64,000 bases of DNA from contig CBDUKN010000004.1 of assembly GCA_965367815.1 (NCBI GenBank), positions 99,952 to 163,951 of the forward strand. The letters run 5' to 3'. Of this stretch, positions 13,353-61,687 are shown piece by piece. Each line of letters opens with the position of its first letter. Position 1 is the stretch's first letter. The position numbers were made by a program, and so were the translations under genes. Under the pieces are notes generated by a model. That model saw only the letters and a list, made by a program, of their open reading frames with translations. It did no database searches and was not told where the DNA came from. The DNA is from an uncultured Thermoprotei archaeon. Its GTDB lineage: Archaea > Thermoproteota > Thermoprotei > Thermofilales > B15-G2.

Positions 13353-14546
13353 ATGAGTAGAGGTAGTTGGACTAAAATTAAGATAGGAACTTCTGGGTAC
13401 AGTTATGATGACTGGGTAGGTGTTCTTTACGAAAAACAAGAGAGTAGACTCAAAAAGTATTCATCTGTTTTTACTTTAGTAGAAATAGACTCTACTTTTT
13501 ATTCTGAGCCTAAGCCTGAAGTAGTTAGATACTGGGTAACAGTAACTCCGATAGGATTTACTTTTACTGCTAAGATTTCTAGAGAAATTACCCATAAGCG
13601 AAAGCTAGATCCTAGACGTGGAGCTATAAAAGAGCTTACTAGGTTTATTGAACTTTTAAAACCGCTTATATCGTCAAAGAAACTCGGCTGTCTAGTAGTG
13701 CAGCTGCCTCCTTCTTTTACTTATAGTGATGTAAAGTACTTAGAGAATTTCTTAAAAGAGTCGCCTAGAGAAGTTCGTTTCGCCGTAGAGTTTCGTCATC
13801 CGAGTCTACTAAGAAGCGATGTCTATAAAATTCTTGAGCGATATGATGCAGCATATGTAATAGTTGATGAACCACTTTTACCCTCAGATGTAATTGTAAC
13901 AACAGACTTTAGCTACATCAGGTGGCATGGAAGAGGTAAGGCTCCCTGGTACAATTACCATTACTCGATAAATGAGCTTAAAGAGTGGGTACCTAAAGTA
14001 AATGAAGTAGCCGATAAAACTGATGTTGTGTACGGACTTTTCAACAACCATTTCTATGGGTATGCAGTTCATAATGCTCTGCAAATGATAGTGCTTTTAG
14101 GAATAGCTAATCAGTATCAAAGAGAGCTTTTGAAAAAACTGGATGAGTATTTCTTGAGAAGAGAGGCTGGAATAAGGCCTCCTATTAAGGAGAAAAAACC
14201 TGTTTTATTATGTGCGCTCAGCGTAAAAGAACTACTCGAGTATTTAATGGATAAACATAGATATCGCAGAATGTTTGACATTAATATAGCCGACGTAAAG
14301 ATCATAGAGGCTTCTAGTAAAATTGTAAAAGCAAAAGTAAAAGATTATAACGTTATAATCGATGTAGAAAATAAGGTTATTCTTCACGATTGTCCTGACT
14401 GGAGTAGAGTTCTTGTAGCTAAACAGTTCTGCAAACACGTAGGCAGACTCTTTTTAGTGCTTAAGCCAGAATTAGCAAAAAGTATTCTGTGTGATATTAT
14501 AGAAAATAAAGAGACTTGGAGTTTCAAGCCTCTTACTCAATATTAG
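13353..14546 (+). CDS. DUF72 (YecE) domain protein with C-terminal SWIM-like Zn finger
   Basis: [41 protein letters not shown]; C-terminal HDCPDW...CKH. Confidence 0.85.
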
Positions 14547-37936: not shown

Positions 37937-38048
37937 TGGGGCCGGTGGGATTTGAACCCACGTCCTTCCGGTATCTTCCCGGAAGGATCTGGAGCCGGAC
38001 TCTGGCCGGTGGAGGCCCGGTCGCCATACCTGGCTAGGCTACGGCCCC
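37937..38048 (-). tRNA. tRNA-Trp(CCA) with two introns
   Basis: 112 nt = 74-nt cloverleaf (TCCGG-CT-CCA-GA-CCGGA) + ~22-nt insert near 25/26 + 16-nt insert at 37/38. Confidence 0.85.
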
Positions 38049-58195: not shown

Positions 58196-59053
58196 CTATA
58201 TTTTCGATGCTTTGAAGAAGTATATGGGTCCTGCTTTTTGAATGGAAACTTTATGAAAGCCTTCTCGTTCAATGATCCAGCGAATTTTTGTTTTATTAGG
58301 AGGAGTTATTCCTCCAAAGAGTTTGAGTATAGGTTCTATTAAATTGGGATAATCGTTTTTTTCTCTTAAGGGGTAGCTTCCGTAAAGAGTTCCTCCAAAT
58401 TCTAGCAAGCTATAGGCTTTTGACACTAGGGACTCAATGTCGTAAAGCCATGTTATCGGCGATGTTAGTAATATGGCAAAGATAGGTTCACTTACATATC
58501 TTCCTGCTCTCAGAGGATCTCCATGAATGAATACAACGTTATTTACTTTTTCTAGCTCCATGTAGTCTTTAGCGATTTCAACGTTCTTTTCATCCGCTTC
58601 TATGCCAATAACTTTTCTTCCAGTAACTTTTGCTACTTCTAATGATCCTCTTCCGGTACCGCTATTTAACTCTAGAATTGAGCCTATTTCAGGAATCTTT
58701 ATTTTTCTTCCAATTTCCCGCATTGTTTCGCTGTATACAGGGCTTTCTAAGAGGAATTCTATAAGCATGCGTACACAGCCCATATTTTCTCTGGAAAAGT
58801 CCTCCACGATTGACAGTATATCCTCTATTATTAGCTGAATAGCTTTCTGGAATAGACTCTCCCATGCATTTGATATAAAAGGCACAAAGGGTTGCTTCGG
58901 TAAAACGTAATCTAATGCTTTCAGTATTGAATCCTTATTTTCGAATTTAATGTCTAGGTTTTCTAAAGTCTCTTTAAGCTTAGGTAGTAGCGAAGCAGCT
59001 ATTGTAGCTAAGTTCTCGTATTCTCTAACTAAACTACCTGCGATTATCGTCAT
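58196..59053 (-). CDS. class I SAM-dependent methyltransferase
   Basis: ILELNSGTG, VIGIE, HGD, LEFGG. Confidence 0.75.
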   Translation of the reverse strand: MTIIAGSLVREYENLATIAASLLPKLKETLENLDIKFENKDSILKALDYVLPKQPFVPFISNAWESLFQKAIQLIIEDILSIVEDFSRENMGCVRMLIEFLLESPVYSETMREIGRKIKIPEIGSILELNSGTGRGSLEVAKVTGRKVIGIEADEKNVEIAKDYMELEKVNNVVFIHGDPLRAGRYVSEPIFAILLTSPITWLYDIESLVSKAYSLLEFGGTLYGSYPLREKNDYPNLIEPILKLFGGITPPNKTKIRWIIEREGFHKVSIQKAGPIYFFKASKI

Positions 59054-59871
59054 GTTATCTCCTCAAAGTGTATAACTTCTCTTTTTTCTAATGCCAGTAA
59101 AAATTCTATAGATTCTTTAAGTGCAAAGGGATCTTTAAGCCGTAGAATTTCATATAAAGGCTTTCCTTGAAGGTCTTCTATTTCCTTAATATTAGACCAG
59201 GGGTAATTTTTCTCTAGAAGTGGTCTTACTAGCTCGTAGTATTTTCTAGCTCTCTCATCAACTTTGTACGTGATTTTCATGGATGAAAGCACCAGTGTAA
59301 GTAAATTTTCCATTTTTTCTGAGGGCTCTGTTTCGCAGAATGAATCTATAAGCTGTAAAGCTTTATATAAAGTTTCTATTTTTATTTTATCTCTAGATTT
59401 ATCTATGCTTCTTAGAAACATGTTAAACCATTTATATATTTGGCTTGGAAGTTTAGAAAATGCTATTTCGAGGTCAACTTTATTTAAAACTCCTTTCATC
59501 ATAATATTTGGTCTTTCTTTATATCCTTCTATCACTAGATCCTTATCTTTTAGAATTAGCTTAAATGCTTTTATATTCTTGAAAGAGGTCATATACTTAA
59601 AAGGAATAGTAAAAGATTTTCCAGTTTCGAGGGGGGCTATTAAGCTGTAAACTCTAGATCCTCTCTCATGTCCTTGAGCATCGATGTATATTACAAGTGC
59701 GTGGTCTCTGTGTATATCTACTACGCCAGTCATTCCTATGGGACTATTTTTAGCAGAGATCAGTATGCTTTCATCTATTTCTATTGGAACCCGAGTTTTG
59801 CAGGCGGGACAGTACACGTGGATAACTCTTTTCACATAGATCCCCCTCATTAGTACTATATCATAGAGCAA
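59050..59871 (-). CDS. hypothetical protein with N-terminal CxxC...HxxH metal-binding module
   Basis: CPAC...VVDIHRDHALVIYIDAQGHERG. Confidence 0.65.
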   Translation of the reverse strand: MLYDIVLMRGIYVKRVIHVYCPACKTRVPIEIDESILISAKNSPIGMTGVVDIHRDHALVIYIDAQGHERGSRVYSLIAPLETGKSFTIPFKYMTSFKNIKAFKLILKDKDLVIEGYKERPNIMMKGVLNKVDLEIAFSKLPSQIYKWFNMFLRSIDKSRDKIKIETLYKALQLIDSFCETEPSEKMENLLTLVLSSMKITYKVDERARKYYELVRPLLEKNYPWSNIKEIEDLQGKPLYEILRLKDPFALKESIEFLLALEKREVIHFEEIT

Positions 59872-59914
59872 ATATAAAGTATTTCAGCGCACTACAGACC
59901 ATTGGATTGGTGTC

Positions 59915-59963
59915 TCAGATGGTTGATCCTTCATCAACAGTCAGGCTGGAGAGTATTCATCAT
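59915..59963 (-). ncRNA. box C/D sRNA (16S 5'-end / h27 guides)
   Basis: ATGATGA-atactctccagc-CTGA-ctg-TTGATGA-aggatcaaccat-CTGA with terminal TGTC/GACA stem; divergent from tRNA-Gln. Confidence 0.9.
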
Positions 59964-60018
59964 AGACATAGTGTTTATGGTGAAAAAACTTAAATAGCTT
60001 CTCATTATAATTCATCTC

Positions 60019-60095
60019 AGCCCGGTGGTGTAGCGGTCAAGCATGGGGGGCTCTGGACCCCCAGATCCCGGGTTCGAATCCCGGCCGGGCTACCA
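60019..60095 (+). tRNA. tRNA-Gln(CTG)
   Basis: AGCCCGG stem, GGGGG-CT-CTG-GA-CCCCC, encoded CCA. Confidence 0.95.
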
Positions 60096-60124
60096 ATTAA
60101 GCACACTTTTATTAACTAGTATTT

Positions 60125-61687
60125 TTGACAGAAGATGTGTCTGGCGAAGTACATGCAGGAGATTTCCTAATGGTGGGTTTTAGTGGAACTTATTTAACGC
60201 GCAATTTAAGGGAGTTCTTCGAGGAAATTAAGCCTAAAGGAGTAATTTTATTTAAAAGAAATATTGAAAATGAAAACCAACTTAAGAGGCTTATAAGTGA
60301 TCTAAGAGAGATACTTGGCGAGCCAATAATCGCCATAGATGAAGAGGGTGGAGATGTATCTCGTATAGACTTTATAGTACCTACGCCGAGTCATATGGGA
60401 TTAGCTGCCACAAGAGATCCTTCTTCCGCCTACAGAATAGCGCGAATAATAGGGAGGGAACTTAAGAGACTTGGTATAAATAGTGATTTGGCTCCAGTTC
60501 TAGATGTAAACATTAATCCAGACAACCCTATTATTGGAAATCGGTCTTTCGGAGAAGATCCCGATGAAGTAGCACTTTATGGTGAAAACTATATTAAAGG
60601 GCTTCTTGAGAGCGGTGTTATTGCTACAGCAAAACATTTTCCCGGCCATGGCGATACCTCAACAGATTCACACTATGATCTACCTATTATACCGCATAAT
60701 TACGAAAGACTAGTTAAGGTTGAAATAAAGCCTTTTCAGAGAGCAATTCGATGTGGCTGTCCAATGATAATGGTGGGGCATCTGTATGTACCAGCACTAG
60801 ATCCTGAGAAAATACCTGCTTCTTTATCTTCGAGAGTAATTAATGGCTTCTTGAGAGAGACTTTAGGGTTTGAAGGAGTAGTTATCACAGATGACTTAGA
60901 AATGAAAGCTGTTTCATCGCAATTTGAGGTCAGAAAAGCAGCGGTCAAGGCATTAAGTAGTGGTGCAGATATTGTTTTAATTTGTCATACACGTGAATAT
61001 CAAGAGGAAGCATATGAAGCTATAGAGGAAGCTCTCAAAGACCCTAGTTTTAGGAAAGAAGCTCTGTTAAAGAAAGAGAGAATAGAGAAAAATCTTGGAG
61101 TATTTCTCAAGACTAGTGTTAAAGAGAAGGATTTAGATAGAGAACATTATTTCGAAGAAGCTTTAAAAATAGCTAAAAGTGCAGTAACTGTTGTTAAGTG
61201 GAATAACTTGCCTAAAGAAGATTTTAAGAAATGTATTGTCTTTTACCCAAATAAAATAAAAGAAAGAGTAAGTTACTTCGTATACAAATTGAGCGAGAAG
61301 AAAAAGGATCTCGAAATAATAGCTGTTCCATACTGTGGGTCTAAAGCAGAGAAATACTTTGAATTAACAAAAATTATTGAACAGAAAAAAACTATATGTA
61401 TAGTGTTTACATGGAAGGCAGATAGAGATCCTTGTCAAAAAGAATTCGTCGAGAAGATAGTAAAGTGTGAGAACACAATAATTGTATCGACGAGTACTCC
61501 CTATGACATCAGAAGTTTCCTTGAAGCTGAGAGGTATATAGCGCTGTATGCAGCCTCTCCGATTATGATGGATGCATTAATAGACCTTATTACTAGTAGC
61601 GAGAAAACTAGAGGAAAACTGCCTGTAACAATACCTAACGTGGCTCAGAAAGGACAGGGACTTGAAGTAGTTATCAAGATACTCTAA
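60125..61687 (+). CDS. nagZ: GH3 beta-N-acetylhexosaminidase (two-domain NagZ type)
   Basis: DEEGG, APVLD, RSFG, KHFPGHG.T.TDSH, ITDDLEM. Confidence 0.9.
   Translation: MTEDVSGEVHAGDFLMVGFSGTYLTRNLREFFEEIKPKGVILFKRNIENENQLKRLISDLREILGEPIIAIDEEGGDVSRIDFIVPTPSHMGLAATRDPSSAYRIARIIGRELKRLGINSDLAPVLDVNINPDNPIIGNRSFGEDPDEVALYGENYIKGLLESGVIATAKHFPGHGDTSTDSHYDLPIIPHNYERLVKVEIKPFQRAIRCGCPMIMVGHLYVPALDPEKIPASLSSRVINGFLRETLGFEGVVITDDLEMKAVSSQFEVRKAAVKALSSGADIVLICHTREYQEEAYEAIEEALKDPSFRKEALLKKERIEKNLGVFLKTSVKEKDLDREHYFEEALKIAKSAVTVVKWNNLPKEDFKKCIVFYPNKIKERVSYFVYKLSEKKKDLEIIAVPYCGSKAEKYFELTKIIEQKKTICIVFTWKADRDPCQKEFVEKIVKCENTIIVSTSTPYDIRSFLEAERYIALYAASPIMMDALIDLITSSEKTRGKLPVTIPNVAQKGQGLEVVIKIL

Follow-up and report, generated by a model that had tools for sequence, protein, structure and literature searches.

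A 58-nt box C/D sRNA encoded next to a tRNA gene in the window (the whole 64,000-nt stretch of archaeal DNA analyzed here) carries one guide against the very start of 16S rRNA and another against helix 27, and the question raised by this locus is what such a pair of guides does. The sequence-only reading had taken it for a minimal archaeal analogue of eukaryotic U3, i.e., a chaperone tethering two distant sites that must meet when the central pseudoknot forms. Our analysis leads to a plainer answer: the sRNA is quite probably an ordinary dual methylation guide, judging by its sequence features, and the placeholder effect it would exert while bound is an unavoidable side effect.

Anatomy and setting of the sRNA

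The C, D′, C′, and D boxes are all perfect as read from the sequence. A single U separates the UGUC strand of the terminal stem from the C box, and GACA forms the 3′ end after the D box (Table 1). The expected parts of an archaeal box C/D sRNA are all present: an RUGAUGA C box, a CUGA D box, a short terminal stem that closes the ends, and an internal CUGA/UGAUGA pair, with both guide spacers exactly 12 nt long. The guides pair with rRNA over about 9 to 10 bp, and in both of them the base at the N+5 position, five from the box, is in a Watson-Crick pair (A-U for the D guide and C-G for the D′ guide). Genes for two of the core proteins are also present, with fibrillarin (344 bits) and a Nop domain protein (252 bits) adjacent on contig C4. 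Beyond boxes, guides, and stem, five nucleotides are left free. In a fold of the naked RNA, GUUGAU (loop plus C′ box) is complementary to AUCAAC in the D guide, giving a 6-bp hairpin within 59919 to 59940 of the minus strand; the C′ box happens to look like the 16S target.

Table 1. Coordinates of the sRNA, its parts, and its divergent neighbor in the window
Feature	Position	Strand	Remark
Whole box C/D sRNA, including 4-bp terminal stem	59911..59968	-	58 nt; homologue in G001
Terminal stem UGUC/GACA, 4 bp	59968-59965 with 59914-59911	-	From the fold
C box AUGAUGA	59957..59963	-	Read directly
D′ guide AUACUCUCCAGC, 12 nt	59945..59956	-	Pairs with CUGGGGAGUA, 5′ arm of helix 27
D′ box CUGA	59941..59944	-	Read directly; CUGG in the close strain
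Loop CUGU, 4 nt, between D′ and C′	59937..59940	-	Variable in G001 and in the close strain
C′ box UGAUGA	59931..59936	-	Read directly
D guide AGGAUCAACCAU, 12 nt	59919..59930	-	Pairs with own 16S nt 6-15 (GGUUGAUCCU)
D box CUGA	59915..59918	-	Read directly
TATA-like A/T-rich element (TTAAATA plus, TATTTAA minus)	59990..59996	.	Read from the sequence
tRNA-Gln(CTG), divergent neighbor	60019..60095	+	50 nt from the sRNA

In G001, the sole further genome of the genus, a homologue of the sRNA adjoins that genome's own tRNA-Gln. It was the one homologue returned by a BLAST-type search with the 81-nt region, the remaining hits having E values above 0.05. Scanning the 41 genomes of the order for a pattern gave 6 sites in 5 genomes, and C/D anatomy was found at the sites in the present genome and G001 only. 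When boxes and spacers were scanned for over the whole 2.45-Mb genome, 55 candidates were obtained, this locus among them, versus 1 in the reversed genome.

Rfam was searched over positions 59600 to 60300 at E values up to 10, which produced 27 matches. No family reached its gathering threshold at the sRNA locus; the best subthreshold match was sR9 (26.2 bits versus a gathering score of 36), and many other archaeal C/D families also matched below threshold. This result is what could be said for a chance or dead C/D-like sequence in place of a functional gene. Set against it are the four perfect boxes, the exact 12-nt spacers and the end stem, the 55 candidates versus 1 in the control, the G001 homologue in the same gene neighborhood, and the conservation of both guides across orders described below, and we regard a dead sequence as highly improbable. 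The boxes, the fold, the genome scan, and the homologue likewise confirm the original identification of a C/D sRNA with perfect boxes and a terminal stem, divergent from tRNA-Gln.

The 50-nt spacer between the two genes (59969 to 60018) contains one near-palindromic TATA-like element with purine-rich stretches on either side. Measured from its center, the element is 25 nt away from the sRNA start and 26 nt away from where tRNA-Gln begins, and TATTTAAG occurs upstream of the G001 homologue too. From its sequence and placement, the element may be a bidirectional archaeal promoter shared by the sRNA and tRNA-Gln. Directly downstream of the sRNA is an open reading frame without a Pfam match (59050 to 59871), and the second downstream on the sRNA strand (58196 to 59053, minus) encodes a class I methyltransferase with a weak, subthreshold match to rRNA adenine dimethylase (19.7 bits versus 24). 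Elsewhere in the window, an Rfam tRNA match of 112 nt (37937 to 38048, minus; 49.3 bits) that was not reported by ARAGORN is probably an intron-containing tRNA.

Contigs from three metagenome runs represent a close strain that differs from the window at four positions of the sRNA: 59911 (a stem base, giving a U-G pair), 59937 (a loop base), 59941 (the D′ box, changed at its final base to CUGG), and 59945 (the first base of the D′ guide). Three of the four changes cluster around the D′ box, and the D guide, the C, C′, and D boxes, and 11 of the 12 D′ guide bases are unchanged. The CUGG box may weaken D′-guided methylation in that strain. The pattern allows two readings: the D′ module is decaying, or binding counts for more than methylation.

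Guide targets in 16S rRNA

Covariance-model searches found no rRNA in the organism's own genome, and motif searches recovered just two pieces: the first ~300 nt of 16S rRNA, where contig C11 ends, and the final ~400 nt of 23S rRNA, where contig C4 starts. The rRNA operon is thus broken across contig ends, with helix 27 and nearly all of the 23S rRNA outside the assembly, so the D′ target was checked on the 16S rRNA of relatives only. The 16S fragment on C11 ends in an inverted repeat, an assembly artifact by its look. The target search covered rRNA, and guides were scored by the contiguous run of pairs, with 500 shuffled guides on a 5-kb rRNA operon as the control. This score replaced a looser one over guide positions 2 to 11, which was too permissive (a value of 9.0 was reached by 24% of shuffles).

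The D guide forms 10 of 10 contiguous Watson-Crick pairs with GGUUGAUCCU, nt 6 to 15 of the organism's own 16S rRNA as found on the C11 fragment, and its fifth base from box D lies opposite U8, the first U of GGUUGAUCC. Two of the 500 shuffled D guides matched as well, and the next-best site in the rRNA operons of relatives offers 7 pairs. The full pairing with the extreme 16S 5′ end, first proposed in the sequence-only reading, is therefore borne out: the complement is present in the organism's own 16S rRNA and is the best rRNA match of this guide. The UCC inside nt 6 to 15 is the 5′ strand of the central pseudoknot in the standard 16S secondary structure. The alignment of 16S rRNAs supplied with Dennis et al. 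2015 (PMC4644070) makes U8 the equivalent of E. coli U13.

The D′ guide makes 9 Watson-Crick pairs and 1 G-U pair with CUGGGGAGUA, a stretch that all five relatives for which a full operon is available share unchanged in their 16S rRNA. On the Rfam archaeal SSU consensus structure, the target takes in the three paired G residues low in the helix 27 5′ arm plus the internal loop. The fifth base from the box is opposite the second G of the target, G851 in G004 numbering, which we take to be the equivalent of E. coli G886. The sequence-only reading had placed the D′ guide at helix 27 over about 10 nt with one G-U pair, next to the 3′ strand of the pseudoknot. The pairing holds in 5 of 5 relatives; the pseudoknot 3′ strand itself is untouched, lying ~25 nt downstream of the target. 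The two target sites are indeed far apart, at a measured spacing from U8 to G851 of ~843 nt rather than the ~870 nt first estimated.

Taken by itself, the helix 27 match is weak: 45 of the 500 shuffled D′ guides scored as well, and the match is not significant by shuffling alone. It is conceivable that the D guide alone works and that the D′ guide is orphaned or decaying, or aimed elsewhere, e.g., at 23S rRNA, with the helix 27 match a remnant or a coincidence. Consistent with this, the G-U pair of the D′ duplex adjoins the methylation position, the close strain has its CUGG D′ box and three of its four differences in this part of the sRNA, and orphan guides are described as common in excerpts of PMC6009581. 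The check for better targets gave a mixed result: a competing 23S site near nt 1390 in G004 scores slightly higher (9 Watson-Crick plus 2 G-U pairs), but G005 and G012 do not retain it, and it is thus not conserved even within the order. The D′ guide, on the other hand, is kept not only in G001 but also in three uncultured genomes outside the 41 scanned in the order, two of which have it as AUACUCUCCAGA and one as GUACUUUCCAGG (L121, L146, and L126). The only differences among the homologues are C/U exchanges opposite G and the change of the first guide base from A to G in G001, which lengthens the duplex. That every C/U change falls opposite G is what an invariant GGGG target predicts, and the comparison of homologues thus rescues a match that is weak by shuffles. 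We therefore consider a D guide working alone to be unlikely.

In the D′ register, guides aimed at the helix 27 5′ arm are rare, occurring in 5 of the 401 genomes of a phylum sample. In three of the four other than the present genome, the partner guide pairs, as judged by eye, just 3′ of helix 27, in a stretch that includes the pseudoknot 3′ strand. Perfect ACUCCCCAG guides to the same helix 27 nucleotide are found in G132, G148, and G258, with the N+5 base opposite the same G as in the window D′ guide; by eye, the second guide of these sRNAs pairs just 3′ of helix 27 (the ACUUAAAGGAAUU region) and not with the 16S start. We presume them to be equivalent to the Sac sR101 type, a helix 27 guide with a local partner given as "16S G868 + U894" in the Dennis 2015 supplement (PMC4644070). 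Dual guides thus connect three adjoining elements (the 5′ end of 16S rRNA, helix 27, and the strand that follows helix 27) in combinations that differ by lineage.

The 16S-start guide and its changing partners

A loose pattern for the 16S-start guide matched 65 of the 401 genomes in the phylum sample, compared with ~16 matches for the backwards control. In 28 genomes (29 sites), GGAUCAACC is followed by exactly 2 nt and then CUGA, and another spacing was seen at 1 site only. With a fixed pattern and one genome per species, a search of 185,579 species returned 62 loci, of which 52 are archaeal and 10 bacterial by their record titles; the bacterial loci are without C/D anatomy, and ~17 are expected by chance. 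The archaeal carriers comprise Thermococcus, Desulfurococcales, Pyrodictiaceae, Hyperthermus, Zestosphaera, Wolframiiraptor, Geocrenenecus, Bathyarchaeia, Methanomethylicia, Culexarchaeia, and an Aenigmatarchaeota record. Judged from these sequences, the 16S-start guide is not new: it is a widespread module of heat-loving archaea, held in a constant register and combined with changing partners. A fixed N+5 register is predicted by selection on the methylated nucleotide. One Methanomethylicia genome (G310) has two 16S-start sRNAs 5 kb apart with different partners (C3:9132-9152 and 14158-14178; L049/L114 and L115), a pair that looks like a duplication followed by a change of partner.

The module is present in sRNAs that already have names. 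Four Thermococcus loci with GGAUCAACCGG plus CUGA score 48.5 to 52.4 bits (gathering score, 38) against sR14 (RF01145), known from Pyrococcus and Thermococcus. Their 16S-start guide is in the N+5 register, as in the window sRNA, but it occupies the D′ position and has another partner guide; the window sRNA itself scores 18.4 bits on RF01145, below 38, and the Rfam consensus guide is not identical. Ignicoccus hospitalis sR155 (Dennis et al. 2015, PMC4644070) has its 16S-start guide in the D position, as the window sRNA does, with GGGAUCAACCGG and then CUGA, and it was detected by RNA-seq (1200 stands in the column beside its sequence in supplementary file 1 of that paper). Unlike that of the window sRNA, the D′ guide of sR155 is unrelated to helix 27. 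Over 11 nt, the sR155 D guide is perfectly complementary to the 5′ end of Ignicoccus 16S rRNA in the alignment of the same paper, the supplement of which shows the sR155 targets as "NP NP" in a table with collapsed columns, making for an uncertain reading.

Partner guides were compared over 66 distinct loci (after bacterial hits and exact duplicates were dropped), 64 of them parsed automatically, with targets judged on the G005 operon. The 16S-start guide is joined to a helix 27 guide in 21 of the 66 loci, in two unrelated registers, and is not so joined in the other 45; these counts include related genomes and are not phylogenetically independent. In five loci (the window, G001, L126, L146, and, by eye, L121), the partner targets the lower 5′ arm of helix 27. 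In 16 others, from Bathyarchaeia, Culexarchaeia, Methanomethylicia, and Desulfurococcales by record titles, it pairs 10 of 10 with GCAAGGCUGAA, the helix 27 tetraloop and 3′ arm. The remaining partners are aimed at 16S rRNA near nt 527 to 533, 782, or 45, or at 23S rRNA, or are without a clear target. The search for the guide pair across Thermoproteota that the sequence-only reading had suggested thus shows that the coupling recurs, the 5′-arm register being its smaller part. Both guides would seem to be old, reusable modules that each lineage has combined in its own way.

Other guides in the same genome fall on neighboring targets. A second sRNA (contig C1:28-77, with another copy on contig C2, minus strand, 181154 reverse-complement offset) has a D guide, CUUCGGCAGGAG, to 16S nt 12 to 21, with U15 at N+5. 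Its target overlaps that of the window D guide by 4 nt, so the two sRNAs cannot bind simultaneously; its D′ guide seems, by eye, to fit the organism's own 16S rRNA near nt 34 to 44. A C/D sRNA on contig C5 (minus strand, 23588 reverse-complement offset) has a D′ guide that pairs 10 of 10 with the helix 27 loop, abutting the window D′ target, and a D guide that pairs 10 of 10 with 16S rRNA near nt 790. Helix 27 is hit by ~2 of the 35 well-matched guides in this genome, and excerpts of PMC7994747 name it a methylation hotspot, where neighboring guides of this kind, to nt 12 to 21 and to the helix 27 loop, are to be expected.

Methylation, tethering, and the comparison with U3

An ordinary dual methylation guide is what the canonical boxes, the fixed N+5 register, and the changing partner suggest, and we infer both the production of the sRNA and the methylation that it guides. 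Together with L7Ae, Nop5, and fibrillarin, the sRNA would direct 2′-O-methylation of two 16S nucleotides, the D guide selecting U8 and the D′ guide the second G of CUGGGGAGUA. Excerpts of RiboMeth-seq reports, covering the 16S 3′ end or 23S rRNA, contained no ribose methylation at either predicted site. The guide duplexes would occupy strands destined for helices 1 and 2 or for helix 27, and because those strands are needed for the later helices, the RNP would have to act on unfolded, early pre-16S rRNA. While bound, it would keep helices 1, 2, and 27 open and hold two segments of 16S rRNA on one particle, an exclusion that follows from the standard 16S secondary structure, seen in part in the Rfam consensus. 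Such a placeholder and tethering effect would accompany methylation and not replace it.

Schoemaker and Gultyaev (2006) are said, in later papers that cite them, to have proposed long-range dual guides as folding chaperones. That such guides had been proposed before, as the sequence-only reading noted, is borne out, and the idea of rRNA folding chaperones is firmly established in the literature: it appears in Dennis 2015 (PMC4644070) and in excerpts of Lui 2018 (PMC6009581), Breuer 2021 (PMC7994747), and Seistrup 2017 (Neq sR13). The proposed chaperone sRNAs, among them Neq sR15 and sR17, Pca sR53 and sR56, and Tte sR15, have two guides to a single rRNA, at sites that are separated by more than 100 nt and meet once the subunit has folded; the window sRNA shares such a separation (~843 nt). 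Table 3 of Dennis 2015 has 15 rows, and the 16S start is coupled to helix 27 in none of them. Long-range guide pairs are rarely conserved beyond the genus according to the discussion section of PMC6009581 as excerpted; the coupling of the 16S start to helix 27, unlike those pairs, recurs across classes.

In 30S structures, helices 1, 2, and 27 pack together at the subunit center, which would bring the two target sites close to each other in the folded subunit. U3 is an RNA several times longer than the window sRNA, with boxes and proteins of its own. In the yeast 90S particle (Sun et al. 2017, PMC5354517, excerpts), U3 pairs with 18S nt 9 to 16, and the initial 13 nt of U3 form a duplex with the helix 27 5′ arm (nt 1111 to 1123), the central pseudoknot being kept unformed. 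The window sRNA resembles U3 as a box C/D RNA that base-pairs at the 5′ end of small-subunit rRNA (16S nt 6 to 15 versus 18S nt 9 to 16), and the two are also alike at the helix 27 5′ arm, at the level of the element and with the window target taken from the 16S rRNA of relatives. The parallel with U3 drawn earlier thus stands for the contact sites, although in these excerpts the second contact of U3 is not the pseudoknot 3′ strand. U3 also binds two sites in the 5′ external spacer (PMC5354517, excerpts), whereas the five free nucleotides of the window sRNA leave no room for spacer-binding hinges. The U3 covariance model gave no match at E values up to 10 over positions 59600 to 60300.

U3 is required for early small-subunit processing and is not known to modify rRNA, according to excerpts of PMC8339473. 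No U3-like RNA is known in archaea according to excerpts of the reviews PMC8339473 and PMC3608112, and PMC3879963 states that an RNA doing the job of U3 in archaea "is awaited," a 1995 claim for Sulfolobus having been an artifact. A search of open-access full text found no paper that joins an archaeal sRNA with U3 and helix 27.

These comparisons bear on the hypothesis that tethering is the selected function, with methylation secondary or absent: a U3-like assembly chaperone in which one sRNP keeps hold of nt 6 to 15 and of the 5′ arm of helix 27, postpones the formation of helices 1, 2, and 27, and joins both sides. The two sites match the two U3-18S duplexes of the yeast 90S particle, duplexes at these sites exclude helices 1, 2, and 27 while they last, and the coupling is seen in two unrelated registers (5 loci with the 5′ arm as target, 16 with the loop and 3′ arm) deep in the tree, which would be unusual if long-range pairs are otherwise rarely conserved beyond the genus. 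An archaeal RNA of this type is missing from the reviews cited above (PMC8339473, PMC3608112, and PMC3879963, as excerpted), and the close strain keeps 11 of 12 D′ guide bases despite its CUGG D′ box. Against this, 45 of the 66 loci have a partner other than helix 27, the Thermococcus guide is in the D′ position with other partners, and the strict N+5 register argues for methylation. The sRNA, at 58 nt, has no space for hinges and does not match the U3 model; helix 27 is a general hotspot, so that some coupling is expected by chance; and the counts come from related genomes. We give selection for tethering rather little credence.

The ordinary methylation guide is therefore the reading we retain. 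The earlier claim of a minimal archaeal U3 analogue, or dedicated chaperone, found no support, given the canonical boxes with their N+5 register, the module with its changing partners, the sRNA to nt 12 to 21, and the missing U3 match. A dedicated U3-like role is possible by analogy; at the contact sites the analogy is apter than the sequence-only reading knew, and as a statement about function it is unsupported.

The locus shows a widely kept archaeal guide that is complementary to those initial nucleotides of small-subunit rRNA to which U3 also binds, and one-third of the examined loci have, in the same RNA, a second guide to helix 27, the other 18S contact of U3. It is conceivable, although in our estimation doubtful, that sRNAs with one guide to the first 15 nt of 16S rRNA and another to helix 27 represent the archaeal counterpart, and possibly the forerunner, of the 18S-binding 5′ domain of U3. 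If so, one RNP would keep the pseudoknot strands apart and yet together until the core of the subunit is ready, and the window sRNA would be the member that hits exactly both segments held by U3 in the 90S pre-ribosome. If methylation is all that it does, the sRNA would be a tidy addition to the catalog of conserved archaeal methylation sites. Even as a mere methylation guide, its binding would precede helices 1, 2, and 27 and may thus provide a testable handle on the timing of central pseudoknot formation in archaea.
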